Position numbers and translations under genes: made by a program. Shown in pieces: positions 14,310 to 60,887 of a DNA stretch of 64,000 nucleotides. The DNA comes from Oscillospiraceae bacterium (GTDB lineage: Bacteria > Bacillota > Clostridia > Oscillospirales > Oscillospiraceae), in assembly GCA_017535865.1 (NCBI GenBank), contig JAFXTM010000059.1, positions 40,336-104,335 of the forward strand, written 5' to 3'. Below the pieces are notes generated by a model. The model was not told the origin of the DNA, did not search any database, and was given only the letters and a program-made list of their open reading frames with translations. The stretch's first letter is position 1. Each line of letters opens with the position of its first letter.

Positions 14310-15027
14310 ATTGCAGCCGCCGCAGCATCTCGCGACGCAGGCGCTCGATGATCCGTTTTTCCAGACGGCTGATATAGCTTTGGGAGATGCCCATCGAATC
14401 GGCAACCTCCTTCTGCGTATATTCGCGCCCGTCAGGGATCCCGAAGCGCATGAGGATGATATGCTGTTCCCGCGGCGGGAGCAGAGCGATTGACTCGCGC
14501 AGCATCTGTCGGTCGGCGTCATCCTCCATGGGACGGGATACCTCGTCCTCGTCGGTGCCGAGAATATCCGAGAGCAGCAGCTCGTTGCCGTCCCAATCGG
14601 TGTTGAGCGGCTCGTCAAAGCTGACCTCGGCGCGCTGGGAACCGACTTTGCGCAGATGCATCAGGATCTCGTTTTCGATGCAGCGTGAGGCGTAGGTGGC
14701 GAGTTTGATGTTCTTCTCGCTGTTGAAGGTGTTGACGGATTTGATGAGACCGATCGTCCCGATGGAGATCAGATCTTCCAGATTGATGCCAGTATTCTCG
14801 AAACGCTTGGCGATGTAGACGACCAGACGCAGGTTGTGTTCGATCAGCAGCCTGCGCGCGTCCTCGTCCCCCTCCTCCAGCGCGGTCAGCGCCGCCTCCT
14901 CCTCTTCGCGCACGAGCGGCGGCGGAAGTGTGTCGCTCCCACCTATGTAATAGACCGACGGTGGCTTGACGCCGAGGATGCGCAGTAACTGATCCTGGAA
15001 AAAGAAGATTTGGGGTTTACATAACAT
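14305..15027 (-). CDS. sigE: Sporulation sigma factor SigE (pro-sigma-E)
   Basis: Sigma-70 regions 2-4 ([16 protein letters not shown]...; ...[21 protein letters not shown]) plus an N-terminal pro-sequence. It sits immediately downstream of spoIIGA. Confidence 0.9.
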
Positions 15028-15039
15028 ATTATCCCTCCT

Positions 15040-15840: not shown

Positions 15841-15846
15841 GCCCGG

Positions 15847-15880
15847 ATTATACCGCCGTCGGCATCGGAGATTTTGTCAG
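15847..15880 (-). promoter_or_regulatory. Candidate spoIIG-type promoter with a 22-nt spacer; possibly yields a leaderless mRNA
   Basis: The minus strand reads CTGACA (15880-15875), 22 nt, TATAAT (15852-15847), then 6 nt to the ATG. No SD is present. Two CCGAA half-sites lie 10 bp apart further upstream. Confidence 0.3.
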
Positions 15881-15918
15881 ACTTGCCGTTTGAAATTCTC
15901 TTCGGACTGTTTCGGCTA

Positions 15919-15947
15919 TTGTCAAAAGGCTCGAGCTGTGGTAAAAT
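15919..15947 (+). promoter_or_regulatory. Sigma-A-type promoter for the EamA gene
   Basis: TTGTCA, 17 nt, TAAAAT, with TGg extended -10. Confidence 0.45.
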
Positions 15948-15977
15948 CACTTAGAATGCAGACCCGGAAGTCGGGGA

Positions 15978-16910
15978 ATGGAAAGGAAAAACGTTGGAAT
16001 GTGGTTCTGGTTTGCGTTGATTGCGCTGCTCTGCTGGAGCGGTTCGGACTTGTTTTCCAAAATCGGCTGTCAGGATGCTTCCGACAAGTTCAGCCATTTG
16101 AAAATGGTCACGGCGGTCGGCGTCGTTATGGGAATACACGCAGCCTATGAGGTGTTCTTCAACGGGGTCGAGATTACCTGGTCGATCCTCCTGACCTATC
16201 TGCCGGTCTCCTGTCTCTATATCCTCTCCATGGCGATCGGGTATCTCGGACTGCGCTATATCGAACTGAGCATCTCCTCCCCGATCTGCAACAGCTCCGG
16301 CGCGATCGTCGCGGTGCTGACTTTCATGACTGCCGGTATCGGGGAAGATCTGCCGCCGATGGCCCTCAGGGCTGTTGCGCTGATCTGTATCGGCGTGATC
16401 GCGCTGGGTATAACCGAGGCAAATGAGGATGAGGAGCTGCGCCGCGCGCGGCAGGACGCCTCCAACCATCACTATGCCAAAAGCTGGATCGCTATTCTGA
16501 TCCCGATCATTTACTGCCTGCTTGACGCGCTGGGCACCTTTGCCGACAGCAAGGTGCTTGAGACGCTGAACGAGGATTCGGCCAACGTCGCCTATGAGCT
16601 GACCTTTCTTGCCATGGGCGTCATATGCGCCGTCTATGTGATAGGCGTCAAGAAGCAGAAACTGATCCCCCGGCAGGAAGCGCCGAAGTATACCGGCGCT
16701 GTGTTTGAGACCGTCGGCCAGTTCTTTTATATCTATGCGCTGGCGGATTCGGAGCACGTGGCCTTTGCCGCGCCCATTATTTCCTCCTACTGTGTGGCTT
16801 CGGTCATCTGGAGCCGGCTGTTTTTGAAGGAAAAGCTCTCCTGGAAGCACTACGCCTCGATCGCGGTCGTGATCTACGGCATCGTGATCCTCGGTATCCT
16901 GGATATTTGA
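15978..16910 (+). CDS. DMT superfamily (EamA-like) transporter
   Basis: 10-TM protein with the LLCWSGSDLFSKIG start typical of EamA repeats. An alternative start exists at ATG 15999. Confidence 0.72.
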   Translation: MERKNVGMWFWFALIALLCWSGSDLFSKIGCQDASDKFSHLKMVTAVGVVMGIHAAYEVFFNGVEITWSILLTYLPVSCLYILSMAIGYLGLRYIELSISSPICNSSGAIVAVLTFMTAGIGEDLPPMALRAVALICIGVIALGITEANEDEELRRARQDASNHHYAKSWIAILIPIIYCLLDALGTFADSKVLETLNEDSANVAYELTFLAMGVICAVYVIGVKKQKLIPRQEAPKYTGAVFETVGQFFYIYALADSEHVAFAAPIISSYCVASVIWSRLFLKEKLSWKHYASIAVVIYGIVILGILDI

Positions 16911-16928
16911 TCGAAAAGGAGAAAAGCT

Positions 16929-17639
16929 ATGCAGACGAAGTTCAGGCGCATCCTCATCAAGATCAGCGGTGAGGCGCTGGCTGCGGACAAGCACACGGGC
17001 TTTGACTTCGATTTTGTCACCCGGGTCTGCGAGGCGGTCAAGGCCTGCGCCGACGCGGGCGTGCAGGTCGGCATCGTGATCGGCGGAGGCAACTTCTGGC
17101 GCGGCGTCAAGGACGGCGCGGGAAAGGTCGAGCGCGTCAGCGCGGACCGGATGGGCATGCTGGCCACGGCTATGAACTGCCTCGCTGTCTGCGACGTGTT
17201 CCGTCAGCTCGGCGCGGACGCCCGTATTCTCACGGCCATGGATATCCAGGGCGTGGGCGAGCGCTTTGAAGCGCGCAAGGCCATCGAGTATCTCGAGCGG
17301 GGGAGCATCGTGCTCTTTGCCTGCGGCAGCGGACACCCCTTTTTCTCCACCGACACCGCGGCGGTTTTGCGCGCGGCGGAGGTCCATGCTGACGCCATCC
17401 TGCTTGCAAAGAACATCGACGCCGTTTACAGCGATGATCCGCGCCGCAACCCCGACGCTGTCCGCTTCGACGAGATCAGCTATGAGGAAGTGCTGGCGAG
17501 GCGTCTGGCGGTCATGGACACCACGGCGACCTGCCTCGCGATGGATAACAGCATCCCGGTCATCGTCTTTGCCCTGGCCGAGCCGGAGAACATTGGCCGC
17601 GTCCTGGCGGGTGAGAAACTGGGTACGATCGTGCATTGA
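16929..17639 (+). CDS. pyrH: UMP kinase
   Basis: RILIKISGEAL...GGGNFWRG...; conserved pyrH-frr-uppS synteny. Confidence 0.95.
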   Translation: MQTKFRRILIKISGEALAADKHTGFDFDFVTRVCEAVKACADAGVQVGIVIGGGNFWRGVKDGAGKVERVSADRMGMLATAMNCLAVCDVFRQLGADARILTAMDIQGVGERFEARKAIEYLERGSIVLFACGSGHPFFSTDTAAVLRAAEVHADAILLAKNIDAVYSDDPRRNPDAVRFDEISYEEVLARRLAVMDTTATCLAMDNSIPVIVFALAEPENIGRVLAGEKLGTIVH

Positions 17640-32106: not shown

Positions 32107-32799
32107 ATGATCAATATGTTCAATGTCACCGAGGTCTATGACAGCAGCGGGACAGTCGCACTCGACGGGATCGATCTGCAGATCGAGGAGGGTGAGTTTG
32201 TCTTTCTGGTGGGGCCCTCCGGGTCCGGTAAGACGACCTTGATGAAGCTGATCACGGGCGAAGTCCGGGCGACGGACGGAACGGTTGTCGTCAACGACTT
32301 TGACATGACCAAGATCAAACGCCGGAAGCTTCCCAAGATGCGCCGCACCCTGGGCGTCGTGTTTCAGGATTATCGTCTGATCGACAACATGACGGTCTAT
32401 GACAACGTGGCTTTTGCCATGCGTGTCGTCGGCGCGCCCAACCGTGAGATCCGCAAGCGTGTGCCCTACGTGCTGGATCTCGTGGGCCTGAAGGGCTGCG
32501 AGAAGCGTCTGCCGAACGAGCTCTCCGGCGGCGAGCAGCAGCGTGTGGCGATTGCCCGCGCGCTTGTGAATTCTCCGCGCATGCTGGTGGCGGACGAGCC
32601 GACCGGCAACCTGGACCCGGTGCGCAGCCTGGAGCTTATGCTCCTCTTTGAAAAAATCAATGAGATGGGGACGACGGTTCTGGTCGTTACCCATGAAAAG
32701 GAACTGGTCAACGCCCTGGCCAAGCGTGTCGTCACGATCGACAACGGCCACGTGATCAGCGATGAGATGGGTGGGTATTTCGGCGATGATTCTGAGTAG
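32107..32799 (+). CDS. ftsE: Cell division ATP-binding protein FtsE
   Basis: GPSGSGKTT, LSGGEQQRVAIARAL, LVADEPTGNLD; followed by ftsX. Confidence 0.9.
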   Translation: MINMFNVTEVYDSSGTVALDGIDLQIEEGEFVFLVGPSGSGKTTLMKLITGEVRATDGTVVVNDFDMTKIKRRKLPKMRRTLGVVFQDYRLIDNMTVYDNVAFAMRVVGAPNREIRKRVPYVLDLVGLKGCEKRLPNELSGGEQQRVAIARALVNSPRMLVADEPTGNLDPVRSLELMLLFEKINEMGTTVLVVTHEKELVNALAKRVVTIDNGHVISDEMGGYFGDDSE

Positions 32800-33688
32800 A
32801 TGCGGTTATTTGATCCGCGAAGGTTTCCGAAGCATTAAAACACACAGCTTCATGTCTTTCGCGTCGGTTACGATTATCATGGCCTGCTTGATCATTATGG
32901 GAAGCGTGACGCTGCTTTCCTTCAACATTGACGCTCTGATCAAGAATCTCGAGGATCGGAACGAGGTCGTCGCGTTTGTGGACGACGCCGTGACAGACGA
33001 GGCGGAGGCGCGTGCGCTTCAGCCGGAACTTGAGGCGCTGGACAATATCATGAGCGTCGAGTTCATCTCCCGTGACGAGGCCATGGAAAACTTTATGAGC
33101 AAGTATGATTCCAGCCTGCGGGAGGGGATCGATCCCACGGTTTTCCGTCATCGCTTTGTCGTTCATCTGAACGACATCGCTCAGATGGCGGAGACAAAGA
33201 GCGCAATGGAAGGCGTGGTCGGGATCGCCAAGGTCAAGGCGCATCTGGAGTACGCAAAAGCCTTTGTGACGGTGCGCAACATCGTGAGCGTCGTCTCTCT
33301 GGTCCTGACGATCATCCTGGTTTTTGTCTCCATCTTCATCATGTCCAACACCATCAAGCTTACGACGTTCGGACGCCGTGAAGAGATCGCCATTATGAAG
33401 ATGGTCGGCGCGACCAACAGCTTTATTCGTCTGCCCTTCGTCGTGGAGGGTCTCGTGCTCGGGCTGCTCGGCGGCAGTCTGGCGTTCCTCGCGGAGTGGG
33501 GACTTTACGCCCTGATCACCCGGCGCGTCATGGGGACTGTTTCCAACAGCATCCTGTCTGAGAGCTTCTTTACGCTTATCCCCTTTAAGACGCTTGCACT
33601 CCCCGTGCTGGTCGTGTTCCTGGGCATCGGCGTGTTCGTCGGCGTGTTCGGCGGCGTCAATGCGATCCGCAATTACCTGAAGGTCTGA
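32786..33688 (+). CDS. ftsX: Cell division permease-like protein FtsX
   Basis: 4-TM FtsX topology with a large first extracellular loop. The YLIREGFRSIKTHSFMSFASV start is typical. ATG 32786 overlaps the ftsE end; the ORF is open from 32762. Confidence 0.85.
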   Translation: MILSRCGYLIREGFRSIKTHSFMSFASVTIIMACLIIMGSVTLLSFNIDALIKNLEDRNEVVAFVDDAVTDEAEARALQPELEALDNIMSVEFISRDEAMENFMSKYDSSLREGIDPTVFRHRFVVHLNDIAQMAETKSAMEGVVGIAKVKAHLEYAKAFVTVRNIVSVVSLVLTIILVFVSIFIMSNTIKLTTFGRREEIAIMKMVGATNSFIRLPFVVEGLVLGLLGGSLAFLAEWGLYALITRRVMGTVSNSILSESFFTLIPFKTLALPVLVVFLGIGVFVGVFGGVNAIRNYLKV

Positions 33689-33712
33689 AAGCGGATACGG
33701 ATTGGAGGCAAT

Positions 33713-35044
33713 ATGAAACAGAAGAAAGCCATTTCGATTTTGTGCCTGGTACTCGCGGTGATCATGATCCTCTCCCTGGTGATCAGCGTCTTGCCCGGCC
33801 GGGCTTACGCGGTCACGCAGAGCCAGATCGACGCGATGAAGGCAAAAAGAGCGGAAATCACACAGCGCAAGGATAAAGCCCAGGAGGTCCTGGACAGCCT
33901 GAAGGAAGAAAAGGCCGGCGTTCTGGTCGAAAAAAACGCGCTGGATGAGAAAAACGCGGCGGCCCAGGAAGCGTTGGAGCTCGTTGCCGAAGAGATCGCG
34001 ATGTATGACGACATCATCGCGGAGAAGGAAGAAGAGCTGGCGGCAGCCCTGAAGAAGGAAGAGAACCAGCTTGCCCGTTACCGGCAGCGTATTCGCGCCA
34101 TGGAGGAAAACGGCGGGTATAACCTGATCGGCATTCTGATCAGTGCCGACAGTTTTACGGATCTGCTGACCACGCTTGACGACGTGGGCGAGATCATGGA
34201 GAGCGACAAGACGCTCGAGCGGGAATACCGTGCCGCCCGCCAGGAAGTCGAACGCGTCAAGGCTGAGTACGAGGCCGTGCGGGCCGAGTGCGAGGCAAGG
34301 CAGGCGGAGCTCCGGGAGGAGAAAGCCCAGTTGGAGGCGGAGATCCTGGAGACCGAGGAGAGACTCGCGGAACTGTCCGATGAGATCGACGTGGCTACGG
34401 CCGCCTATGAGGAGGAGGTAGCCGCGGAGGCGGAAGCGGACGAACAGGTACGTAAGCTCATTGCCCAGTACGAGGAAGAGCAGCGCAGAGCCCGTGAGGA
34501 AGCGGCCAGACGTGCTGCGGCAGCGGCGGCGGCAGCGGCAGCTGCGCAGAGCGGAGGCGGCGGCAGCAGCACCGGCGGCGGCGGGGAATCGGTCGGCGAC
34601 GGCTACTCCGGCTATACCGGCACCAGTACCGGAGGCGGCGGCAGCAGCACCGGCGGCGGAGGCGGCGGCTTTATGTGGCCCGTGCCCTGCAGCCATCGAA
34701 TCTCCAGTTACTACGGGGAAGACCGAACCAATCATTTCCACAGCGGCATCGACATCGACGGCTACGGCAACGACGGCGCGCCTATTGTCGCATCGGCGTC
34801 CGGGACCGTCATCCTGGCGGGATATAACGGCGGCTACGGTGAATGCGTCATGATCGACCACGGCAACGGCTATGTGACGCTGTATGGGCATATGTCCGGG
34901 TACGCGTGCTCGTATGGCCAGTATGTCAGCCAGGGCCAGACGATCGGTTATCTCGGTTCGACCGGCAACTCGACCGGTACCCATTGCCATTTTGAGATCC
35001 GTGTCAACGGTTCGACCACGAATCCTCTTTCGTACGTCGGCTGA
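33713..35044 (+). CDS. Coiled-coil M23 peptidoglycan DD-metalloendopeptidase (EnvC/PcsB-like FtsEX partner)
   Basis: Signal/TM segment, about 250 aa of heptad-rich coiled coil, an Ala/Gly linker, then the M23 motifs HSGIDI...GHMS...HCHFEI. Confidence 0.85.
   Translation: MKQKKAISILCLVLAVIMILSLVISVLPGRAYAVTQSQIDAMKAKRAEITQRKDKAQEVLDSLKEEKAGVLVEKNALDEKNAAAQEALELVAEEIAMYDDIIAEKEEELAAALKKEENQLARYRQRIRAMEENGGYNLIGILISADSFTDLLTTLDDVGEIMESDKTLEREYRAARQEVERVKAEYEAVRAECEARQAELREEKAQLEAEILETEERLAELSDEIDVATAAYEEEVAAEAEADEQVRKLIAQYEEEQRRAREEAARRAAAAAAAAAAAQSGGGGSSTGGGGESVGDGYSGYTGTSTGGGGSSTGGGGGGFMWPVPCSHRISSYYGEDRTNHFHSGIDIDGYGNDGAPIVASASGTVILAGYNGGYGECVMIDHGNGYVTLYGHMSGYACSYGQYVSQGQTIGYLGSTGNSTGTHCHFEIRVNGSTTNPLSYVG
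34503..34672 (+). repeat. Low-complexity GC-rich coding repeat (poly-Ala then Gly/Ser linker) inside the M23 gene
   Basis: It encodes AAAAAAAAAAQSGGGGSSTGGGG...GGGGSSTGGGGGG. The gcggcggc/ggcggcgg runs are visible in the DNA. Confidence 0.8.
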
Positions 35045-35167
35045 TCGAGATGGGGGCGGCGGAGCGAAAGCGACGCATGTCGTCCGCTTCTGCTTCCGTA
35101 TCATGACTCTGTCGGACAGGATTCCGCAGAAAAGGGAATAGACCTGAACATACTGCGTTTTACTACG

Positions 35168-35200
35168 CTTTGCCGGACAGCTTTCCGCTGTCCGGCAAAG
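35168..35200 (+). terminator. Perfect 13-bp hairpin after the M23 gene (no trailing T-run; terminator or processing site)
   Basis: ctttgccggacag-ctttccg-ctgtccggcaaag. Confidence 0.4.
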
Positions 35201-35223
35201 CCGTGTTCCCAAGGAGGTTGACT

Positions 35224-37055: not shown

Positions 37056-38561
37056 ATGAGCGAGAACAAGGCCGGACAGCCGGAGGAGATCCAGGAGCTG
37101 TCCGAGATCCTGCGCATCCGGCGGGAGAAGCTTAACAACCTCCGGGAGGAGGGGCGCGATCCCTTCCAGAAGACCCGCTTTGAGCGTACGGCCTGGTCCG
37201 AGGAGATCAAGCGCGCTTATGACGAGTTTGCGGAAAAAACCGTTTCCGTCGCGGGGCGCATCATGTCCAAACGCGGCATGGGCAAGGCGATATTCTGTCA
37301 TATCAAGGATGATCGCGGCCAGATCCAGCTCTACATCCGTTCTGATGCGGTGAGCGAGCAGGAGTTCAAAGACTTCCGCAAGTACGATATCGGCGATATC
37401 ATCGGCGTCACCGGCTATGTGTTCAAGACGAAAACGGAGGAGATCTCCGTCCATGTCGAGGCGGTCGAGCTGTTGTCCAAGTCCCTGCGCCCGCTGCCGG
37501 AGAAGTTTCATGGCATGACCAACACCGAACTCAAATATCGCCAGCGTTATCTCGATCTCATCATGAGCGATGAGAGCCGCCGCAATTTTGAAATACGCAG
37601 CCGCTTTATCAGCCATGTCCGCCGCTATCTGGATGAGCGCGGCTACATGGAGGTGGAGACGCCGGTCCTGAACACGATTGCTGGCGGGGCCGCCGCCAGA
37701 CCTTTTATCACGCACCACAACACACTGGATATCGACATGTATCTGCGTATCGCGACCGAGCTGCCGCTCAAGCGGCTGATCGTGGGCGGCATTGAGCGCG
37801 TGTACGAGATCGGGCGCATCTTCCGCAACGAGGGTATGGATACGCGCCACAACCCGGAGTTCACTTCCATTGAACTCTATGAGGCCTATACCGATTTCCA
37901 CGGCATGATGGATATCGCAGAGGGGCTCCTTTCCAGCGCTGCCCGGGAGATCCTGGGGACCTATGAGGTAGAGTGGATGGGCAACACCATCGACCTGAGC
38001 CCCGGCTGGAAGCGTATGACGATGGTGGAGGCGGTCCGGGAATACGTCGGTATCGACTTTGACGCGATCTCCGACGACGCGGAGGCGGTCGCCGCCGCGA
38101 AAGCGAAAGGCGTCGAACTGGCCGAGGCTGCGGAAAAGACCTGGGGCAACGCCCTCTATGCCTGCTTCGATCAGCGGGTGGAGGAGCATCTGATCCAGCC
38201 CACCTTCATCACCATGTATCCGGTGGAGGTTTCGCCGCTCACGAAGCGCAGCCCGATGGATCCGCGCCTGACCGAGCGCTTTGAATTTTTCATCAACGCC
38301 AGCGAGATGGGCAACGCCTATTCCGAGCTGAACGATCCCATCGACCAGCGACGCCGCTTTGAGGCGCAGCTTGCCCAGCGGGAGCGCGGCGATGACGAGA
38401 CCGAGATGCTGGATGAGGATTTCCTCACTGCCATGGAATACGGTATGCCGCCCACGGGCGGCATGGGAATCGGCATCGACCGTGCCGTCATGCTCCTGAC
38501 CGGGAGCAGCTCCATCCGCGACGTCATCCTGTTTCCCACGATGAAACCGGAGAATTACTGA
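37056..38561 (+). CDS. lysS: Lysine--tRNA ligase (class II)
   Basis: RRYLDL...FRNEG...ELNDP...GMGIGIDR motifs; 501 aa. Confidence 0.95.
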   Translation: MSENKAGQPEEIQELSEILRIRREKLNNLREEGRDPFQKTRFERTAWSEEIKRAYDEFAEKTVSVAGRIMSKRGMGKAIFCHIKDDRGQIQLYIRSDAVSEQEFKDFRKYDIGDIIGVTGYVFKTKTEEISVHVEAVELLSKSLRPLPEKFHGMTNTELKYRQRYLDLIMSDESRRNFEIRSRFISHVRRYLDERGYMEVETPVLNTIAGGAAARPFITHHNTLDIDMYLRIATELPLKRLIVGGIERVYEIGRIFRNEGMDTRHNPEFTSIELYEAYTDFHGMMDIAEGLLSSAAREILGTYEVEWMGNTIDLSPGWKRMTMVEAVREYVGIDFDAISDDAEAVAAAKAKGVELAEAAEKTWGNALYACFDQRVEEHLIQPTFITMYPVEVSPLTKRSPMDPRLTERFEFFINASEMGNAYSELNDPIDQRRRFEAQLAQRERGDDETEMLDEDFLTAMEYGMPPTGGMGIGIDRAVMLLTGSSSIRDVILFPTMKPENY

Positions 38562-38567
38562 TAATCC

Positions 38568-38606
38568 GAAAGCACCTTGCCAGACCGCAGGGTGCTTTCC
38601 TTTTCT
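38568..38606 (+). terminator. Rho-independent terminator of greA-lysS
   Basis: Stem gaaagcacc/ggtgctttc followed by cttttc. Confidence 0.75.
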
Positions 38607-38717
38607 GCCGTTGGGCGCCGCTCTCGACACCCCGTGTCCGTTGCCTTGGGCGATCGAGGACGGCTTCTGCGATCTGGATGCCCGGCAGACACGTCTTGAA
38701 AAAACGCGATGCTGTCA

Positions 38718-38746
38718 TTGCGGGAAATGGTGTTCTGTGGTAAGAT
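38718..38746 (+). promoter_or_regulatory. Own promoter for the TIR-like gene
   Basis: TTGCGG, 17 nt, TAAGAT, with TGg extended -10. Confidence 0.4.
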
Positions 38747-38801
38747 AGCTATCATAAATGAACAGATAACGGTTACAGGAAAGAGAAACAAGGGTGATCA
38801 T

Positions 38802-40145
38802 ATGAAAGATAAAGTATTCATCGTGTGGTCCGGCGACTCGTCGGTCGCGCAGAAGGTGAAAAACAGGCTGGAGGGAAACCACAATTACATCTGCCTGATC
38901 GGCGGCGGATTTGGGACACAGGTACAGGCGATGTCTGTCGGAGATACCGTGATCAAGCAAATGAATCTCTGCAATCAGGCCATTGTCCTTTTCCAGAACA
39001 GGCAGACCGGCACGGTGAGCGATAATCTTTTCTTCGAGTTGGGATATGTTGCCGCCTCCTACGGGTGGAAAAAGATCCATTGCATCAGCAGAAAAGGCGA
39101 AAGCATTCTCCTTCCCTCGGATTTTGACAATTCCTTTGTAGAAGCGATCGAGGGGAAAACGGATGATGAATTTGCCGATAATATCGTTGCGTTCTTTTTG
39201 AAGCGGCAAAGACTGTCTTTGGTCGTCAATAAGATGCAGCTGATCAGTAATCGGCATATCATGCATGACATCATCCAGGCGCATTATTCCGAAATGGGCT
39301 CCAAGTGCTCCGACTATGAACTGGCGCAGTATATCCTGTTCTATATGCAGGCGGCGGTCATGTTTCAGGATGAGCCGAAAGTGCTGGAAGAACTCCGGGA
39401 TTTTAAGCGGAAACACAACATGGAATTCTCAAAAGAGATCACGATCGCCGTGAATCTGAGCGTTGCCTTGCTTGAGGTTCAGGTCGGATTGAAAAACGAC
39501 GGCGGTACGGTCTTTCTGGATGAACCGGCTTTTCGAAAGTATTATAACGCCTGCCGGAACATCCTGGATGAGATCGAAGAGGATGCTTCCGGGACCTTCG
39601 ATGAATGGGCAAAGACATTCGCTTCCGAGAATATCGCCTACGCCTGCTGCCACTACGCGGAGAATCCGGGCATATCGGACAGCATGAGAGCAAGCCTCTA
39701 TGAGAGAACGATAAAATACGGCAAGGAAGCCCTGGTCCACATTGAACAGCTGGAAGCGAATACACCGACAAACGAGAACAACGACAGCACAGGCTTGATT
39801 TCCCTGTTCAAGGCGTACGTCTATCGGCACCTGTTCCTCGCCTGCAGATCGATCTGCCGTGAAGAGGCGGGAGAATGGCTGAACAAAGCGCTGAAAGAGA
39901 GAGCGCAGCTTGTCCGGAACTACAACGATTATGCTGTCGATTCAAAATTGTATATGAATTTTGAAATGGAGTATTATCTGATCCTTATAGAGTATCTGAA
40001 CTACTACGGCAGAGACGGGATGGACCCCTTCGACTTTGAAATGAGCTTATCCGAAATCGATGAGTTTATTGCCAAGACCGAACGGAACAATTCGGTCCAT
40101 GTATTCATGAAAGCCATATCGGAACAGAGGAAATCCTTTGAATAG
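38802..40145 (+). CDS. TIR-like (CAP12/PF10137-type) nucleotide-binding domain fused to a C-terminal all-helical domain of about 300 aa; function unknown, candidate defence/NADase effector
   Basis: ATG 38802 follows SD aagggtga. The N-terminal 115 aa follow the PF10137 pattern: KVFIVWSGD...AIVLF...NLFFELGYVAA...KKIHCIS...LLPSDFDN. The conserved Glu (E79) is encoded at 39036-39038. No P-loop and no TM helix. The gene looks more AT-rich than its neighbours. Confidence 0.6.
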   Translation: MKDKVFIVWSGDSSVAQKVKNRLEGNHNYICLIGGGFGTQVQAMSVGDTVIKQMNLCNQAIVLFQNRQTGTVSDNLFFELGYVAASYGWKKIHCISRKGESILLPSDFDNSFVEAIEGKTDDEFADNIVAFFLKRQRLSLVVNKMQLISNRHIMHDIIQAHYSEMGSKCSDYELAQYILFYMQAAVMFQDEPKVLEELRDFKRKHNMEFSKEITIAVNLSVALLEVQVGLKNDGGTVFLDEPAFRKYYNACRNILDEIEEDASGTFDEWAKTFASENIAYACCHYAENPGISDSMRASLYERTIKYGKEALVHIEQLEANTPTNENNDSTGLISLFKAYVYRHLFLACRSICREEAGEWLNKALKERAQLVRNYNDYAVDSKLYMNFEMEYYLILIEYLNYYGRDGMDPFDFEMSLSEIDEFIAKTERNNSVHVFMKAISEQRKSFE

Positions 40146-40179
40146 GACAGCGTTCAGCAGCGTCTGAGCGCAAGGAATG

Positions 40180-40215
40180 CATCGGGCCCACTGAAATTTT
40201 TCGGTGGGCCCGATG
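40180..40215 (+). terminator. 12-bp GC-rich hairpin downstream of the TIR-like gene (no clean T-run)
   Basis: catcgggcccac-tgaaatttttcg-gtgggcccgatg. Confidence 0.45.
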
Positions 40216-40330
40216 GAAAAGAAAAGAGATGCCGATAGATCATACCGTTGAGACCTGCACTGATCGGCATACCGGCGGTCCGCATAAGCGGGGGCGCTGC
40301 CTCAATGGGAGCCACAAAGGGTAAGACATC

Positions 40331-41356: not shown

Positions 41357-41497
41357 GCCGCATCATTAAAAATGCCGATTCTCTTACAATTCATAGAGGG
41401 GAGGGCAACAAAGAAAAAATGATTAATAAACAAAAAGTAACTTTTTTGTAACCTTTTGTATACCTTTTGACGTTCTTACGTAAAACATGAAAAACGG

Positions 41498-41526
41498 TTG
41501 ACAAATAAAGCCCGCACGAGTAAAAT
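41498..41526 (+). promoter_or_regulatory. Consensus sigma-A promoter for the giant surface-protein gene (leader of about 285 nt)
   Basis: TTGACA (41498-41503), 17 nt, TAAAAT (41521-41526). Confidence 0.5.
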
Positions 41527-41814
41527 GTCATTAAGTATATAGGTGTTATTATGTCGATTTATTGGTTGTATCACCCTATAGGCGGGAAGTTCTCGCCTGG
41601 CAATATGCCGGAAAGAAGCGTTTTCGGCTCGCCGAATGGAATGAATTTGCATTTCGCTGACGTAATATTCCTATTATATTATTCTATATGCTTTTCTTTT
41701 GAAAGAAAACGCGAAAAGGGCGCTATTGATCCCGCTTGCGGGTTTGATAGATAGATACACGTAAATTTGCAGTGACCAGGGAGCCTGTTCGCTGCAGTAA
41801 TGGAGGCAAAGCTT

Positions 41815-44800
41815 ATGAAACAGATGAAGAAGACACTGTCGCTTCTCCTGGCGCTGGTCATGCTTCTCTCTTTGGGCTCGACGGCTTTGGCCGGCGAGGT
41901 CGAGGAGCAGGTGCCCGTCGTTGTGGAGGAGCAGCAGCCTGTCGTCGTCGAGGAGGCGCCCCCCGTTGTGGAGGAGCCGCCCGTCGTCGAGGAGGCGACC
42001 CCTGTCGTTGAGGAGCAGCCCGTCGTCGAGCCTGTGCCCGTTGAGGAGCCCGCGCCCGTCGTCGAGGAGCCCCCTGTTGTGGTAAACGCGATCGTCAATC
42101 AGCCGGAAGACCTTGCCGTGTGCAACGGTGAGGAGGCTGTCTTCTCCGTCGCGGTTTCTGGCAGTGCGACCTTCCAGTGGCAGTACTGCAAGGACGGCCG
42201 CACATGGAAGAACCTCAACGTCAGCCGCTATGGCAACGGCCCCGAGCTTCACTTTAACGCGGCTCTGTCCTACAACGGCTATCGTTATCGCGCTGTGGTC
42301 ACCTTTGCCGACGGCGAGGTCGTGACGACCAAGGCCGCCGTGCTGAAGGTCGCCGCTGCGAAGATCACGGTCCAGCCGCAGGACGTCACCGTGGCCCCGG
42401 GCGAGAACGCTGTTTTCTCGGTCAAGGCGAGCGGCTCCGTGAAGTCCTACCGCTGGCAGTACTCCAAGGACGGCGGTAACACCTGGACCTATCTGAGCCT
42501 CAAGAACTATCCCGCCAAGAGCACCCTTACCGTGGCCGGCAAGGAGGCCTTCAGCGGCCGCCTGTTCCGGGTGGTCATTACCGCGGCGGATAATTCGAAG
42601 CTGATCTCGAACGCGGTGATGCTCACCGTGGCCGAGCCGACGCCGGAACTGCCGGAAGCTCCTGCACTGGTGGAGATGCCGGCGCGTACGCTGAAAGCGG
42701 CCCCGCGGCGCGGACCTGCCTCTGAGGTCGGCGTTGAGGTCGACGCGCCCGCCGGCGCCCTGCCCGTAGATGCGGAGCTGAGCGTGGCCCCGGTCGATGT
42801 GGCCGAGTGTGAGGAGCTCACCAAGGCTCTCCTGGGCGACGAGATCGAGATCGGCTATGCCGTGGACATCAGCTTCTCCACGCCGGCCGACGGCGAGATT
42901 GAGCCTGTCCAGGGCAATCCCGTCATCGTTTATCTGACGGTGCCCGGCCTGGCTGAGCGCGAGGGTCTCCTTCAGATCGTTCACATCTCCGACTCGGGCA
43001 ACGCCACGCGTATGGCGCTCGTTCCGGAGAGCGAGCTGCCGCGTCCTCTCGGTGAGAACGAGATCGCCATCAAGTCCGATGAGTTCTCCACCTACGTCCT
43101 GACTTGGACCGCCGGAAGCGAAGAGCAGTCCGCCACGATCCACTGGGGCACGTATGATGGGGACGAGTTCACAGAACTGGAGACTCCCACGACGATTGAC
43201 TCCACTGCATCTTCCGTGGATGTCAATGTCATTATTGACGCATCAAAGTATTACTTTGTCGCGGCCGAGTATAAGCTGACTGCGGATGCGGAAGAGTCTG
43301 AGATCCTGAAATCCACTGTCCTCAAGAAGGTGGACGGTGTCTGGCAGGTCACCCTTGAGTCCGGTACGGTTGCTTTGGCAGACGGAAGCCATATCTTCGT
43401 CAACTATGCTGAAATCGGATCGGGTGGCTATGTGCCCCCGTCTCCGCCTCCGCAGGATGTCCTGCCTCCGGAGACCGAAAAGACCGTTACGAGGAATGCG
43501 GATGGCACTTATACCGTTCAGCTGGATATTACCGGTCATGAGGATGAGAACATCACGCAGATCGGCGCCAACGTCGTCATCGTGATGGACATCACGCAGA
43601 GTATGACGAACGGTATGCCCGGCGGCGGTGGTTCACGTATGGCGGCGGCGAAGAGTGCGCTGAGCACGCTGATCACTACCTTGGATCCCGACAAAAACCT
43701 GATCAACTTTACCGCGGTGAACTTCGGCGTTAGCCAGAACGGGGCGACTCTGGCCCGCGACTGGACCACGCAAACATCCCAGATGAATGCATATGTGTCC
43801 GGCCTTCCCAACAATCCGAATGATTATGGCACCAACTGGAGGGCTGGTTTGGAGGGCGGCCAATCGCGTGTTCAGAACGCCAATAGCTCGGCGACGCTTA
43901 GTAAGAACGAGACCTACGTTATTTTCGTGACGGACGGCAACCCGAACTGCTATACAGACGACAGAGGCAGATGGCACCCATCGAGCGGCCCGAACTTTGA
44001 CCAGGGCGCTTATAACGCTTCTGTCAATGCTGCGAACTGGCTTGGTAGTAACAGCCATTTCTACGGTGTGTTCGTTGGTGACGCAGACGGTTATGATCAT
44101 CTGGAGGACCTGATCACCAACGCTCATGGTGTGGAAACCATCAACGGCACCGATACCGAGGAACTTAAAGCGGCCTTCGGCTCAATCGCCCAGACCATCG
44201 TGGACAACCTCGGCGCCGGAAGTGTTGTCGTTGACGACGGTATCCCGACCCTCTCCAATGTCAGTGCTAACGTCTCTGCCGGTGAAGCGGGTGGCTTTGA
44301 GTACTACATCACGCCGAAGAACGGCACACAGACCGAATGGACCGACCATCCCGGCGCAACCTACAGCAACAGCAACGGCGTCACCTGGAACCTGAGCGAG
44401 GCCGGCACCCTGAAGGACGGATGGGTCTATACCCTGAAGTTCAAGGTGTGGCCCAGTCAGGCAGCGTATGACCTGATCGCCGACCTGAACAACGGCCTGG
44501 TGAGTTTTGATGATCTTCCCGAAGAGCAGCAGGCTGCCGTGGAAGGCAACATTAACGACGGCTATACGCTGAAGACCAATACGCATCTGTATACCACCTT
44601 TAAAGATCTGGATGGAAATGAGTATCGGGATGTCTTGGATGCGAAAGCCAAAGCTATGCCGTTGCCCACCACTACCATCAAAGTGGTAAAGTATTGGAAC
44701 AACGATCTGGATGACAAAGAAGCGATTGCAAATGCGTCGATTATTGTTACCAAGGATGGCGACGATTACGAAACCGTAAATCTTGGAAGTGTTACTCAGA

Positions 44801-46410
44801 TCGGTCCCCATAGGTGGAAACAGACGCCCAACGTTGAGATCTATATCTCTATGGGTCAGTTGACGCTGGATACGGAGACGGATGAGATCAACGTCATTTC
44901 TTCCGGACATGACTACTCTGTCAAAGAACCGATCGAATACTCTTACAACTGGTGGCTGACCGCTGACACCTATCATCCCATGCTTGTGAATGGCGAGCCC
45001 ACTGTTCTGATCAAGGTTAGGGATGCGGATTTGGCCAGCGCGCCCAGCTTGAATGACAATGAGCATGTTACAAGCGGAGGCAAGGACTACTATAAGTTCA
45101 ATGGCACTCTTTATGTTGCGCAGGATGCGGACGAGAACCTCCTGGAGGCTACCAACGACCGCCGCAGCAACCTGAACGTGACCAAGGTTGTGACGGGTGA
45201 GAACGCCCCCGCCGATGCATACTTTACTTACAGTATTACTGTTACGGATTTCGAGGGTGAGGATGTCTGGTTCTCTGTTGCCACTGATACGACCGGTGCT
45301 ACTCTTGTAATGGATGAGGGTATCGCTACCGGTGCTACGCGTGAGGTGAAGAACGGTCAGGCAACCGGGTACTGGTACTTCGCCAGCGGCGGGACGGCTA
45401 CCGTCAAGATCAAGGCTGGGCAGAACATCCGTATCATGAACCTTCCCAATGATTCGACATACGAAATCGTAGAGGTTGAGGATTCCATGGAGCCCGGCTG
45501 GGTGTTTACCGAGGCGGAGTCTTCCATCGTTTCGGATTATCAGGCTACGCCCGCATCGATCGATGGTTCTACCGCTTCCGGTACCATTGACATGGCCAAC
45601 ACGAAGTACATCGTGACCTACACCAACGAGTATCTCGGCGTGTTCTATGTGTACCACTCCAGCAACTGCGCCGTGGAGCAGATCCCGATGTCGACAGGTG
45701 GCGTTGCGTACAGCGCGTCCAATCCCTTCAACATCTTTGCCAAGACCTATGAGGGCACGCTCTACGGCGGCTACTACAGCGACTACGCGGGCAAGAGCAG
45801 CGGCTTCGACGCGGCGGCTCTGACGTACACGGACGGTCTTGGCTCCGATGCGGACGGCACGCCTTACAGCCTCGCCTACATCAAGGAAAGCAGCAAGGCT
45901 GCCTGGTCGTCTTCGGCGGCCTACGGTGTGGATGGCACGGCCATAACGCCTGTCAAGGATACGGTCTACTTCCTCAAGGAGGTCCCGACCGCGTACCTGC
46001 AGCCCTACACCTACTTCACCTACTACAAAGCGGCACCCCAAAATATCGCTGCTCTGTGGACGATCTCCGCGCTGGACGACCTGAACTACACCGGCGCTGG
46101 CTTCTACATTCAGAATGTACAGACCGGGACGACCAACGTGGTCTCCTCGCTGAGCATCAAGGCTGCGAACAGCACGACGACGGTCAAGCTGACTGCCAGC
46201 AAGTGCTTCGGTCTCAAACAGGGCATTCTGGACGGCTATCTGAGCTACGTCAAGATCAACGATATGATCGGATCGAAGATCAACATTTGGCAGTACTGGA
46301 CGACCCCGGATGGTATCGAGGTCTGCGGCATTGTTCAGCGTGAGCTTGACACGACCAGCGGAACGAAGGCGAGTGTCGGTTACAACGACACGGCCTATCC
46401 CGGGACCTGA
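41815..46410 (+). CDS. Giant secreted VWA-domain, pilin/Cna-B-like surface protein (1531 aa) lacking an LPXTG sorting signal
   Basis: ATG 41815 lies 8 nt after SD ggagg. Signal peptide (LLALVMLLSLGSTALA), P-V-V-E-E repeats, and two Ig-like modules with the FSV.xSGS...WQYxKDG..W motif. VWA with MIDAS residues (VVIVMDITQSM...GTNW...FVTDGNPN). Pilin-like modules (LNVTKVVTGENAP; LPNDSTYEIVEVED). The C-terminus ...YNDTAYPGT has no LPXTG or hydrophobic tail. Confidence 0.75.
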   Translation: MKQMKKTLSLLLALVMLLSLGSTALAGEVEEQVPVVVEEQQPVVVEEAPPVVEEPPVVEEATPVVEEQPVVEPVPVEEPAPVVEEPPVVVNAIVNQPEDLAVCNGEEAVFSVAVSGSATFQWQYCKDGRTWKNLNVSRYGNGPELHFNAALSYNGYRYRAVVTFADGEVVTTKAAVLKVAAAKITVQPQDVTVAPGENAVFSVKASGSVKSYRWQYSKDGGNTWTYLSLKNYPAKSTLTVAGKEAFSGRLFRVVITAADNSKLISNAVMLTVAEPTPELPEAPALVEMPARTLKAAPRRGPASEVGVEVDAPAGALPVDAELSVAPVDVAECEELTKALLGDEIEIGYAVDISFSTPADGEIEPVQGNPVIVYLTVPGLAEREGLLQIVHISDSGNATRMALVPESELPRPLGENEIAIKSDEFSTYVLTWTAGSEEQSATIHWGTYDGDEFTELETPTTIDSTASSVDVNVIIDASKYYFVAAEYKLTADAEESEILKSTVLKKVDGVWQVTLESGTVALADGSHIFVNYAEIGSGGYVPPSPPPQDVLPPETEKTVTRNADGTYTVQLDITGHEDENITQIGANVVIVMDITQSMTNGMPGGGGSRMAAAKSALSTLITTLDPDKNLINFTAVNFGVSQNGATLARDWTTQTSQMNAYVSGLPNNPNDYGTNWRAGLEGGQSRVQNANSSATLSKNETYVIFVTDGNPNCYTDDRGRWHPSSGPNFDQGAYNASVNAANWLGSNSHFYGVFVGDADGYDHLEDLITNAHGVETINGTDTEELKAAFGSIAQTIVDNLGAGSVVVDDGIPTLSNVSANVSAGEAGGFEYYITPKNGTQTEWTDHPGATYSNSNGVTWNLSEAGTLKDGWVYTLKFKVWPSQAAYDLIADLNNGLVSFDDLPEEQQAAVEGNINDGYTLKTNTHLYTTFKDLDGNEYRDVLDAKAKAMPLPTTTIKVVKYWNNDLDDKEAIANASIIVTKDGDDYETVNLGSVTQIGPHRWKQTPNVEIYISMGQLTLDTETDEINVISSGHDYSVKEPIEYSYNWWLTADTYHPMLVNGEPTVLIKVRDADLASAPSLNDNEHVTSGGKDYYKFNGTLYVAQDADENLLEATNDRRSNLNVTKVVTGENAPADAYFTYSITVTDFEGEDVWFSVATDTTGATLVMDEGIATGATREVKNGQATGYWYFASGGTATVKIKAGQNIRIMNLPNDSTYEIVEVEDSMEPGWVFTEAESSIVSDYQATPASIDGSTASGTIDMANTKYIVTYTNEYLGVFYVYHSSNCAVEQIPMSTGGVAYSASNPFNIFAKTYEGTLYGGYYSDYAGKSSGFDAAALTYTDGLGSDADGTPYSLAYIKESSKAAWSSSAAYGVDGTAITPVKDTVYFLKEVPTAYLQPYTYFTYYKAAPQNIAALWTISALDDLNYTGAGFYIQNVQTGTTNVVSSLSIKAANSTTTVKLTASKCFGLKQGILDGYLSYVKINDMIGSKINIWQYWTTPDGIEVCGIVQRELDTTSGTKASVGYNDTAYPGT
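41896..42082 (+). repeat. Imperfect tandem coding repeat (about 15-18 nt units, gtcgtcgaggag-like) encoding (P)VVVEE(x)P units
   Basis: The translation reads EEQVPVVVEEQQPVVVEEAPPVVEEPPVVEEATPVVEEQPVVEPVPVEEPAPVVEEPPVV. Confidence 0.8.
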
Positions 46411-58699: not shown

Positions 58700-59761
58700 A
58701 TGTATCAGTTTGCCGTTTTGCTGCGCGCGCTTGCCTGTATTCTGATAACGAATTCTCATATGGAGAGCGTTTACCCCAATAAGATCTTTGCAAACGGCGG
58801 CCTGCTCGGTGACGTACTTTTTTTCGCCTTGTCCGGTTTCCTCCTTTACGCAAAGGAACAACCGGTTTTTTTCAAATGGTATTATAAAAGACTGAAGAGA
58901 GTATATCTCTCGACCTGGATCGTGGTATTGCTTTTCTGGCACAGCGGCACATATGGCCATGTTTCCCTCAGCCGTTTTGTTCAGCTGTTTATTTGGCCGA
59001 CAAAATACCATTTTGTTTCTTCTATTCTGGTACTATACGTTGTTTATTATTTCCTCGTTCGGTTTGTCAACGCAGGTTTAGAGCATAAAAACAAAAAGCT
59101 TCTCCTTGCAGGCCTGTGTCTGGGCATCGTCTTTTTTACTGCGTTTTACTGTCTGTTTGATTTCAGCTACTATCATATCGACAATGTTTACAGCCCTATG
59201 ATCTGGCCGCTTTACCTTTTTGCCATGATGATCGGGATGTATTTCCGGATGAATGCGGAACGGTTTTTTAATAAAAGCTGTGTTTTCGCGTGGTTCGGAA
59301 TTCTGCTGGCTGGCGCAGCTTATGCGGGAACAAAGCTTCTCTTCTCCAGAGGAAAGCTTCCCGGCACGATACAATGGCTTAATCAGGTAACGCTGTTATT
59401 CCTGCTTTTTTTCATTTTCCGATGCTTTGTCGGCCTGGAAAGCAGGATTCGTCTGATCCCCGGCGTGGTCTTTGAACCGGTTCGCTTCCTTTCAGAGCGG
59501 GCTTTCGAAATCTATTTGGTCCAGATCCCTTTGATTCAGCTCTGCAATATTGGAAAGAAGTCGTTTCCAACGAACCTTATGATCGTGTTAGGGGTCATTT
59601 TTCTATGTGCGTGTGTTGCACGTCTGCTTGTGAAAATCGTATTGCAGGCGGGATCCTGGTTTTCAGTGAGAGTAAAAAAAGCTGAAAAGATTGGGTGGTG
59701 TGCCGCACAGAGAGCTTTGCATCACAGAAACATAAAAAACACGGGGAATAAACGGGAATAA
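58700..59761 (+). CDS. Acyltransferase-3 family membrane O-acyltransferase
   Basis: 10-TM protein with LRALACILI...GDVLFFALSGFLL motifs. Visibly AT-richer DNA. Confidence 0.78.
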   Translation: MYQFAVLLRALACILITNSHMESVYPNKIFANGGLLGDVLFFALSGFLLYAKEQPVFFKWYYKRLKRVYLSTWIVVLLFWHSGTYGHVSLSRFVQLFIWPTKYHFVSSILVLYVVYYFLVRFVNAGLEHKNKKLLLAGLCLGIVFFTAFYCLFDFSYYHIDNVYSPMIWPLYLFAMMIGMYFRMNAERFFNKSCVFAWFGILLAGAAYAGTKLLFSRGKLPGTIQWLNQVTLLFLLFFIFRCFVGLESRIRLIPGVVFEPVRFLSERAFEIYLVQIPLIQLCNIGKKSFPTNLMIVLGVIFLCACVARLLVKIVLQAGSWFSVRVKKAEKIGWCAAQRALHHRNIKNTGNKRE

Positions 59762-59765
59762 CGTT

Positions 59766-60887
59766 ATGAAAGAAATACTTCCGATCTATATCGGCTGCGT
59801 CCTCCTTGCCTATCTTTCACATCGATCGTCGCTCTACGATTACAGGCTTGCGCGATATAAGCATAAAGACAGGTTTTTTTTCTCATTGATTGTTTTTATA
59901 GCTGTGATTTTTGTTGGGCTGCGCACGGATTACAACGACACGGCTGCCTATATAAGATACTATTCAGCGATTGAAACCAGCACAGGATGGTTCTCCAAGA
60001 TCGACTGGTCGGTAAGTGAATATCCTTTGTTTCGCATTCTGAATAATGTATTAAAGATAGCCGGTTTTTCCGCCCAGTCTTTTATACTTATTTATTCTGC
60101 TTTTTCCATCGGCGTGTTTCTTTGGTTTATACGCAAGTATACCGAAGACTTAACACTATCCATATTTCTTTTCTTCACCATGGGCTGCTATATTTTCACA
60201 ATGGCGGCCATAAAGCAGTGTACTGCGACAGCTTGCTGTCTCCTTGGGATTGACAGACTCCTGAGCACGAAACATGCCAAATACATCCGCTTTTTTTTGT
60301 GGATTACGGTAGGTATGCTGTTCCATCCCTTTGCGGCCATGTTTTATCTCTGCCCTTTCCTGACTTTTTCGCCATGGACGCTCCCGTCCTATCTGATGAT
60401 CATCCTGTGTGCCGTGGGCGGCTACTCTCTGCAGACCTGGCTTTCCAGTGCGCTCGACCTTTTGAGTATGGTGGGAATCGAATATGATGACTCCTTGGCA
60501 TTGTCAGAAAGCGTCAATGTGCTTCGCGTTCTTGTTGTGTGGTCGCCGATCCTGCTCTCTCTCCTGACGTCAAAGTTCTGGGTCCGCAGCAAGAATAAAG
60601 TAGACAATCTGCTTCTGAACCTCTCCACGCTCTGTGCGGAGATCATGTTTATTGCACTATTTGGCAACCCGCTTTATTTCGGACGCCTGGCAAACTATTT
60701 CCTGCTCTTTCAGACGATCAGCCTTCCGTTTGTCTTAAGGTACTTTGAAGAGAACAGCCAACTGCTGATAAAAATCATTGTGGTGTTCGGTTATTCCGGT
60801 TATGCATATTACAGAGAAGCACTCCGAACGACGACTTTTGACTCGGCGTTCAGCAGGATTACACTGTGGCAGTACCTGGGATTTTAG
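59766..60887 (+). CDS. EpsG-family polysaccharide polymerase (Wzy-like)
   Basis: 373 aa, about 11 TM helices. The GLRTDYNDTAAY motif near the N-terminus is typical of EpsG. Confidence 0.68.
   Translation: MKEILPIYIGCVLLAYLSHRSSLYDYRLARYKHKDRFFFSLIVFIAVIFVGLRTDYNDTAAYIRYYSAIETSTGWFSKIDWSVSEYPLFRILNNVLKIAGFSAQSFILIYSAFSIGVFLWFIRKYTEDLTLSIFLFFTMGCYIFTMAAIKQCTATACCLLGIDRLLSTKHAKYIRFFLWITVGMLFHPFAAMFYLCPFLTFSPWTLPSYLMIILCAVGGYSLQTWLSSALDLLSMVGIEYDDSLALSESVNVLRVLVVWSPILLSLLTSKFWVRSKNKVDNLLLNLSTLCAEIMFIALFGNPLYFGRLANYFLLFQTISLPFVLRYFEENSQLLIKIIVVFGYSGYAYYREALRTTTFDSAFSRITLWQYLGF

Follow-up and report, generated by a model that had tools for sequence, protein, structure and literature searches.

TIR domains are central to the immunity of bacteria, plants and animals, and so far every new mode of TIR control has uncovered new signalling chemistry. 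The subject here is a single gene, lying between lysS and a DUF218 gene in a 64-kb stretch of DNA from an Oscillospiraceae bacterium (the window, within which coordinates are counted on the + strand), whose product is predicted to join a TIR domain to a TPR-like domain. Among the closest described systems, the characterised TIR domains of family PF10137 are NADase effectors, cleaving nicotinamide adenine dinucleotide (NAD+), of the cyclic-oligonucleotide-based anti-phage signalling system (CBASS) and of Pycsar (family description; PMC9402430). In the cryo-electron microscopy structure of the S. faecium TIR-STING protein (SfSTING, of the Cap12 type), E84 is catalytic, S10, R78 and N80 contact ribose and phosphate, F6, W33, F37 and L47 stack on nicotinamide, and the essential D110 is supplied to the active site by the partner TIR (PMC9402430). 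A different N-terminal domain precedes TPR repeats in ThsI, the effector of type VIII Thoeris described as 'CMP hydrolase and TPR' (10.64898/2025.12.03.692087), and in BcTpr, which has the same DrHyd and TPR layout (10.1101/2023.05.26.542521) and whose core TPR-containing gene, in the survey that described it, often stood alone (29/78 operons); effectors of the ThsI/BcTpr kind respond to or make molecules of the cyclic ADP-ribose (cADPR) type. Set beside these, the window gene appears, as far as its sequence can tell, to encode a TIR effector of the Cap12 class whose regulatory domain is new, and it belongs to a family in which an acetyltransferase is an unexpected companion. The gene is divided as follows.

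38802..40145, + strand: TIR + TPR-like gene; coding sequence of 447 amino acids (aa), predicted Cap12-class TIR domain, then TPR-like domain
38802..39161, + strand: predicted TIR domain, residues 1-120; PF10137, alpha/beta fold with five strands
38829..38831, + strand: S10 codon (WSG motif), aligned with SfSTING S10, an NAD phosphate/ribose contact
39024..39038, + strand: N75-L-F-F-E79 codons; N75 corresponds to Cap12 N80 and E79 to the catalytic E84
39120..39122, + strand: D107 codon (LPSD motif), corresponding to Cap12 D110, the residue acting in trans
39162..40142, + strand: TPR-like alpha-solenoid, residues 121-447; all-helical in the AlphaFold2 model

The open reading frame (ORF) listing holds one long + strand frame here, 38709-40145, which reads as 478 aa from 38709. 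That start was rejected, and the coding sequence taken as 38802-40145, where the initial annotation had placed it, because the homologues all begin at MKDK, a start common to 286/286 database relatives, most of them 445-450 aa long.

Assignment of the N-terminal domain to the CAP12/PF10137 class, proposed in the initial annotation from motifs alone, withstood profile searches. The match to PF10137 (CAP12/Pycsar effector TIR) reaches 38.8 bits against a gathering cut-off of 24.7 (E 1e-9) and spans residues 4-109, or profile positions 1-110 of 119, and the same family is matched by 49/50 members of the broad family. All the motifs on which the proposal had rested were found in the protein (KVFIVWSGD at 4-12, AIVLF at 60-64, NLFFELGYVAA at 75-85 and KKIHCIS...LLPSDFDN at 90-110), and the codon for the conserved Glu, E79, does lie at 39036-39038. 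While a search of PDB sequences with the single protein returned noise only, the broad-family profile matched Cap12 TIR-STING and nothing else (9lmq, E 5e-6; 7un8, E 3e-5), and TIR-STING 9lmq was also the top Foldseek match of the AlphaFold2 model of the window protein (pLDDT 86.5, pTM 0.81). In the alignment to the Cap12 chains, window residues F6, S10, S73, N75, E79 and D107 fall on SfSTING pocket positions, the pairs from SfSTING to window being F6 to F6, S10 to S10, N80 to N75, E84 to E79 and D110 to D107. Of these, S10, N75, E79 and D107 are invariant in the core family alignment; E79 is also invariant in the 50-sequence broad alignment, which takes in sequences as low as ~22% identity and in which D107, N75 and F6 each reach a conservation of at least 90%. 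A nucleoside 2-deoxyribosyltransferase (NDT), the Rossmann-like alternative that had been raised against the assignment, was rejected: the window protein has no Nuc_deoxyrib_tr match at E up to 1, that family is matched by 1/50 relatives only, and weakly (6.5e-4), and the PDB profile search leads to Cap12 and to neither MilB nor NDT. The N-terminal domain is thus a Cap12-class TIR, with a pocket that differs in part from that of Cap12.

The remainder of the protein, residues 121-447, is all helical with high confidence in the AlphaFold2 model, which bears out the all-alpha domain expected from the letters, and it carries no family name. Beyond the TIR, no Pfam match for a P-loop, cyclic-nucleotide (cNMP)-binding, STING, SAVED or other domain was obtained in the window protein, so that the earlier statement on P-loop and cNMP-binding elements also stands. 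Structural likeness to TPR domains is weak, with Foldseek matches to the LGN/Pins TPR at E ~1e-2 (target-normalised TM score 0.35-0.55 over ~305-317 aligned columns in the higher-scoring matches) and to the Rap TPR domain weaker still (E 0.075, TM score 0.27), and sequence models of TPR match single relatives only (E ~0.008). When the C-terminal domain alone was searched against 1.84 billion representative proteins, 72 clusters were found, nearly all of them proteins of 440-490 aa in which the domain starts at residue 126-150; the domain therefore appears almost only behind a PF10137 TIR, and does not seem to be shuffled among effectors. Family-specific motifs in it are GSKCSDYELAQY (166-177), ENND (325-328), Y339/R342 and EMEYY (388-392). 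In the core family, mean pairwise identity falls from 65% in the TIR to 61% over residues 121-230 and 40-44% beyond them, and the core alignment of 60 sequences has 67 invariant positions. Because conservation in the C-terminal part persists, when the whole broad family is compared, at polar and aromatic residues (Q136, K144, Y339, R342, R367, E390 and Y391), a conserved small ligand or a conserved partner is more likely to be the trigger than a variable, fast-evolving phage protein.

With Cap12 (SfSTING, 7un8; 9lmq), the only PDB sequence family matched and the best structural match, the window protein shares a PF10137 TIR, its N-terminal position with a regulatory domain after it, and conservation, in the window family, of the counterparts of F6, S10, N80, E84 and the trans-acting D110. 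However, the domain that follows is a STING cyclic-dinucleotide-binding domain in Cap12 and a TPR-like solenoid of ~325 aa in the window protein, the stackers W33 and F37 are not conserved in the window family, and no CD-NTase gene lies nearby. What would make the locus a CBASS is missing from it: the neighbours are greA, lysS, DUF218 and an adhesin gene, the window ORFs give no cyclase-type PADLOC match, and neither STING nor SAVED was found. PycTIR likewise has a PF10137-type TIR effector domain, and its model gives a weak PADLOC match in the TIR region (E 0.023); however, the TIR is C-terminal in that model (profile positions 192-261 of 288), and the window gene comes without a cyclase and with no cNMP-binding domain detected. 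Nor does a PycC gene adjoin it, the window as a whole has no cyclase-type match, and PF00211 is absent from the 25 most frequent of the 219 Pfam families counted in 148 flanking genes of relatives. The PADLOC candidate PDC-S35 (E 0.002-0.008, again in the TIR region) resembles the window gene in being a single gene with a PF10137-like TIR region, but the match covers ~60 TIR residues, and the TIR is there C-terminal in a protein of ~265 aa with no TPR-like domain.

In layout, the nearest likeness is to ThsI and BcTpr, which also have an N-glycosidase-fold domain first, a catalytic Glu after an Asn-containing loop, a C-terminal TPR and a length of ~400-450 aa, and which are tied to NAD-derived chemistry and often occur without a TIR partner. 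However, their N-terminal domain is MilB/DrHyd-like, whereas that of the window protein belongs to PF10137, and homology to ThsI was rejected: the family profile, compared by hhalign with a ThsI-like protein (L117:2776-3981) that an E. coli IncP plasmid encodes beside a type VIII-like ThsB, gave a probability of 0.3% (E 0.21). That protein matches PF20308 TPR-S (1.5e-17) and MAP3K_TRAF_bd, while the window protein has no match to PF20308 or PF13281 at E up to 1. In addition, no ThsB-type TIR gene adjoins the window gene or occurs elsewhere in the window, and TIR_2 neighbours are found in a minority of relatives. The resemblance to ThsI, to judge from the profiles, is one of design and not of membership, and the view that the architecture fits no named system holds, with PADLOC matches weak and limited to the TIR and homology to ThsI absent. 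The plasmid locus used for this comparison, L117:2776-5972 (NZ_CP147111.1), carries, after the ThsI-like TPR-S gene, a TIR gene, a second TIR gene and DUF4231, an arrangement that resembles type VIII Thoeris next to what may be another TIR-based system, on a conjugative plasmid.

Clustering of the flanking ORFs of all relatives' loci shows that the gene often has company. A gene of ~218 aa from the chloramphenicol-acetyltransferase family (PF00302, E 3e-26), here called CatA-like, stands directly upstream on the same strand in 37/61 loci and, in the larger set, in 54/94, or in 41/67 (~60%) once near-identical loci are removed; examples are listed here.

L016:7344-7997, L052:7347-7982, L063:7353-7979, and 51 other loci: CatA-like gene

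Most gaps between the two genes measure from -11 to about +30 nt. Of the CatA-like proteins, 51/54 retain the catalytic HHxxxDG motif, and the scores lie far under every NCBIfam CatA/CatA-like equivalog cut-off (100-130 bits against 250-300). Pairwise distances of the CatA-like and TIR-TPR proteins are correlated (Mantel r 0.72, a value reached in 0/2000 permutations), and the pair travels as a unit while the remaining neighbourhood changes. Literature searches found no paper tying such a partner to TIR systems. At two loci, L090:8001-10887 and L093:7995-10837, one CatA-like gene is followed by two tandem TIR-TPR copies. Other recurrent neighbours are HAD hydrolases, which adjoin the gene or the pair in ~19 loci, and a membrane protein of ~720 aa with a RyR-like C-terminus (TM-RyR), found in ~15 loci, of which five are listed.

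L015:9371-11593, L042:165-2336, L047:3821-6028, L077:3752-6091, L019:5133-7358: TM-RyR gene

TM-RyR proteins have up to ~4 predicted N-terminal transmembrane segments, differing by member, and a conserved E..RWN motif in the RyR-like C-terminus; the RyR domain is matched by 1/10 members, and no other Pfam match and no PDB sequence relative were found for the family.

The family is also recurrently associated with TIR_2 sensor-type proteins. TIR_2 is the commonest Pfam family in the 148 other flanking genes, with six members, and the canonical TIR_2 proteins seen beside the gene are fused to WD40, LRR-CutA1, NagB-like or TPR domains. In a Bacteroidales metagenome-assembled genome (L004/L011), the gene is accompanied by two copies of TIR_2-WD40, DUF4062 and Tubulin_2, and in L002 by TIR_2-TPR, DUF4062 and a reverse transcriptase; the order is TIR_2-LRR-CutA1, TIR-TPR gene, TM-RyR in L015, and TM-RyR, TIR_2-NagB-like, HAD, TIR-TPR gene in L042, L047 and L080.

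L042:2340-3626, L047:6041-7321, L080:5964-7250: TIR_2-NagB-like fusion, 428 aa; NagB half glucosamine-6-phosphate deaminase-like, C-terminal

In an Eggerthellaceae metagenome-assembled genome, the solo gene sits between a Macro-domain gene (L013:7230-7880) and a gene for a non-specific endonuclease (L013:9366-10529); Macro domains bind or hydrolyse ADP-ribose. At one locus, L055, an IU-nucleoside hydrolase gene overlaps the TIR-TPR start codon. Separate nagB-like genes lie divergently beside the solo gene in L001, L007, L008 and probably L014. The L004/L011 locus, taken as a whole (1-17350), has Tubulin_2, a 994-aa protein, a 425-aa protein, RyR, a 736-aa protein, TIR-TPR, two TIR_2-WD40 and DUF4062 genes on the same strand, in the manner of a large, conflict-system-like operon, and in L011 the RyR part is a separate gene of 97 aa. 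PADLOC matches of neighbouring genes to mad3, mad8 and AriA are probably background and were set aside, as the window's own ORFs match alike; the matches in the window probably reflect ABC-type ATPases such as FtsE.

In the 64-kb window itself, tblastn with CatA-like, HAD, TM-RyR and TIR_2-NagB-like queries found none of these partners and the cyclase-type PADLOC models found nothing, in agreement with the initial annotation that no cyclase or partner is near. The claim of a stand-alone protein thus holds for the window copy; however, it does not hold for the ~60% of relatives that are paired with a CatA-like gene. In a neighbour-joining tree, the window gene falls into one clade, 13 loci strong, that lacks the acetyltransferase; its members come from Clostridia, Bacteroidales, Eggerthellaceae and Bacilli/Mollicutes, and clades linked to the acetyltransferase lie around it. 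Given this nesting, the many two-gene cassettes among relatives and the TIR_2 neighbours of others, the solo state is probably derived, and the solo protein may not be autonomous. The family as a whole is rare and patchily spread across phyla: one genome per species was scanned, and 59 loci were found in 185,579 species, all from gut or rumen metagenome-assembled genomes, in many Clostridia (Christensenellaceae and others), Bacilli/Mollicutes, Erysipelotrichaceae, Bacteroidales, Eggerthellaceae and one contig labelled Methanomassiliicoccales, and a metagenome scan added 37 further loci. The contig so labelled (L063, CAUFXM010000003.1, 227 kb, recorded as a Methanomassiliicoccales archaeon) carries a cassette of HAD, CatA-like and TIR-TPR genes, which could be a transfer from bacteria to archaea in the gut. 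A phage origin for the family was rejected: the viral contigs searched hold no relative of the TIR-TPR protein, and in BFVD only a giant-virus Cap12-TIR protein was matched.

The junction occupied by the gene differs between sister species and thereby provides a clean natural experiment, with and without the gene at one site.

38562..40330, + strand: islet of 1,769 bp, from the lysS stop to the DUF218 start; missing from the sister-species contig L073

In L073, 68 bp lie between lysS and DUF218, where the window has 1,769 bp, although the LysS proteins are 96.4% identical (lysS DNA 90%) and DUF218 and the downstream adhesin are also shared; in blastn, homology between the two contigs stops at 38551 and picks up again at 40619. 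The comparison of this junction in related strains, which had been proposed as a check, thus finds the gene absent from L073; five other contigs of the window's species, with an identical LysS, carry it intact at this site and differ by 1-5 nt. L073 is the sole true empty site among the DUF218 relatives compared; four others (P0199, P0205, P0198 and P0194) have other contexts, with GntR or HD upstream, and were set aside as uninformative on the junction. The islet is a one-gene insertion or deletion difference between sister species, and the gene is not part of the conserved core. As had been judged by eye, the gene is also less GC-rich than its flanks, at 0.484 against 0.593 for lysS and 0.592 for DUF218 (window 0.567), which is the third lowest value among the 54 window ORFs and 2.2 standard deviations under their mean (0.579, standard deviation 0.043); GC at third codon positions is 0.65, or 0.635 for the longer ORF reading, against an ORF mean of 0.74. 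Because GC is low and the distribution patchy, gain is favoured over loss, and the suggestion that the gene reached the lysS-DUF218 spacer by horizontal transfer is directly supported. No integrase is present at the islet, and a mobile-element signature was rejected, the flanking direct and inverted repeats being only short and at chance level.

These data best fit a model in which the gene encodes a cytoplasmic two-domain conflict effector, probably acting against phages or else other mobile elements, with a TIR N-glycosidase of the Cap12/PycTIR class, most likely NAD-cleaving, placed under a fused TPR-like domain. By analogy with TIR-STING, the TIR would be inactive alone, its active site needing D107 of a neighbouring TIR; binding of a trigger to the TPR-like domain would lead to self-assembly, the TIRs would then pack together, NAD+ or a closely related nucleotide would be cleaved, and growth would stop before the phage cycle completes. 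The NAD+ substrate, assembly-dependent activation, the trigger and the defence phenotype are what we infer in this scheme, and the window copy would descend, as a solo gene, from a cassette of which the CatA-like O-acetyltransferase is usually a part. If the TIR is indeed an assembly-activated NADase, the family would supply strictly anaerobic gut bacteria with a compact defence module of one or two genes. Several observations weigh against this model. PADLOC gives the window protein weak matches confined to the TIR region, the best at E 2e-4 (CBASS TIR effectors), and finds no complete defence system among the other window ORFs. The equivalents of W33 and F37 are not kept and an invariant G34-G35 stands there instead, and the BB-loop region (36-48) is modelled with pLDDT <50; the substrate may therefore be other than NAD+. 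The sequence is, with 46-69% identity across phyla, conserved to an unusually high degree for an immune sensor, the commonest partners are of a metabolic type (CatA-like acetyltransferase, HAD phosphatase and, once, IU-nucleoside hydrolase) that is unusual for a defence effector, and many loci, the window's included, lie among housekeeping genes and not in defence islands. Confidence in the model is held near the even mark because the nicotinamide pocket is altered and the commonest partners are metabolic.

An alternate scenario, possible but rather doubtful, would make the protein one part of a Thoeris-like pathway in which several genes cooperate in nucleotide signalling, the TPR-like domain responding to an NAD-derived signal from a separate TIR_2 sensor protein, or the Cap12-type TIR making a signal itself; the window copy would then be an orphan, its partners elsewhere in the genome or lost. 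The same-strand TIR_2 repeat-sensor fusions and the TM-RyR candidate effector that flank the gene in L011, L015, L042, L047 and L080 point this way, as do the conserved polar residues of the C-terminal domain, which suit a small ligand, and the layout, cADPR-type link and frequent solo occurrence shared with ThsI/BcTpr. However, most loci have no TIR_2 neighbour (six among 148 flanking genes), no TIR_2 partner occurs in the window, homology to ThsI or TPR-S is not detectable, and the spread of the solo clade across phyla as a single gene argues that the protein works autonomously. A non-immune role is, in our estimate, improbable. Here the protein would be a small-molecule enzyme or regulator, a TIR-fold N-glycosidase whose substrate is a nucleoside, a nucleotide or a related xenobiotic and which shares a short pathway with the CatA-like O-acetyltransferase, HAD phosphatase or nucleoside hydrolase, as in nucleoside-type detoxification or modification in the gut, with the solo copy providing the glycosidase step only. 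The prevalence of the CatA-like gene upstream, its HHxxxDG motif and its correlated distances are as this scenario would have them, as are the HAD hydrolases, the nucleoside hydrolase overlap in L055, the high sequence conservation, the many housekeeping neighbourhoods and the replacement of the nicotinamide-stacking residues of Cap12. However, those PF10137 TIRs that have been characterised serve CBASS and Pycsar as NADase effectors, the family conserves the Asp that acts in trans, as is typical of assembly-activated TIRs, and it is very rare, patchy and mobile, down to a one-gene presence or absence between sister species; further, TIR_2 sensor-type proteins, DUF4062 and Macro are recurrent neighbours of the family, and the CatA-like partner reaches no NCBIfam equivalog cut-off.

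Some TIR domains serve as adaptors, and the gene might accordingly be an inactive relic or a structural adaptor whose TIR makes protein-protein contacts without catalysis, for which the lack of a detected partner in the window and the weak promoter match described below could be cited. We regard this as very improbable, as five active-site positions, the catalytic Glu among them, vary little or not at all in sequences down to ~22% identity, all contigs of the species retain an intact ORF that differs by 1-5 nt only, and the core alignment keeps its 67 invariant positions. A bolder version of the conflict effector, which we offer as an outside chance, would see in the family a TIR-based conflict module not described before, in which, among anaerobes of gut and rumen, the CatA-like O-acetyltransferase acts with the Cap12-type TIR-TPR protein, the window gene being a self-sufficient, phylum-jumping solo derivative. 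In such a module the acetyltransferase might acetylate an NAD-derived product (O-acetyl-ADP-ribose-like), making or quenching a signal, or might instead guard the TIR; should the TIR product prove to be its substrate, a part for acetylated NAD derivatives in bacterial conflict would be suggested.

The remaining features of the locus concern its expression and surroundings.

37056-38561: lysS, upstream neighbour
38568-38599, + strand: lysS intrinsic terminator with a 13-bp stem and T-rich tail, at the upstream edge of the islet; also an inverted repeat
38718..38746, + strand: weak promoter-like element, TTGCGG-17-TGGTAAGAT, 55 nt before the ATG, read by eye
40180-40215, + strand: GC-rich hairpin 3' of the stop codon; 17-nt arms, 94% complementary, 2-nt loop
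40331-41356: DUF218/YdcF gene, downstream neighbour

The clear lysS terminator sets the TIR-TPR gene apart from lysS. Of the promoter and downstream hairpin described in the initial annotation, the former amounts to a weak match by eye, with an extended -10 (TGG-TAAGAT at 38738-46) 17 nt after TTGCGG, whereas the promoter scan reported no + strand promoter for the gene; the latter is present with its 17-nt arms but has no T-run and was not called by the terminator scan. The genes around the locus are ftsE, ftsX, a PcsB-type M23 peptidase gene, an S41 peptidase gene, greA, lysS, DUF218 and the gene for a 1,536-aa adhesin-like surface protein (41800-46410). This last protein has N-terminal Pro/Val/Glu-rich repeats (PVVVEE...), its L073 orthologue carries VWA_2 and DUF7604, and its gene, preceded by an intergenic region (41357-41799) of 40% GC, diverges fast between the sister species, with 65% of nucleotides identical where lysS has 90%. 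The window's lowest GC values (0.445 and 0.454) belong to two adjacent genes at 58700-60887, inside an apparent capsule/exopolysaccharide locus with CpsB-like and AAA_31/ParA-type genes at 49.7-56.3 kb (compared with L072 and L116), and this pair has probably been exchanged horizontally. At the other extreme, positions 34400-34800, within the PcsB-like M23 peptidase gene (33713-35044), encode low-complexity runs of Ala, Gly and Ser at a GC of 0.65-0.68, and this GC-rich stretch yields a long spurious antisense ORF (32756-35212).

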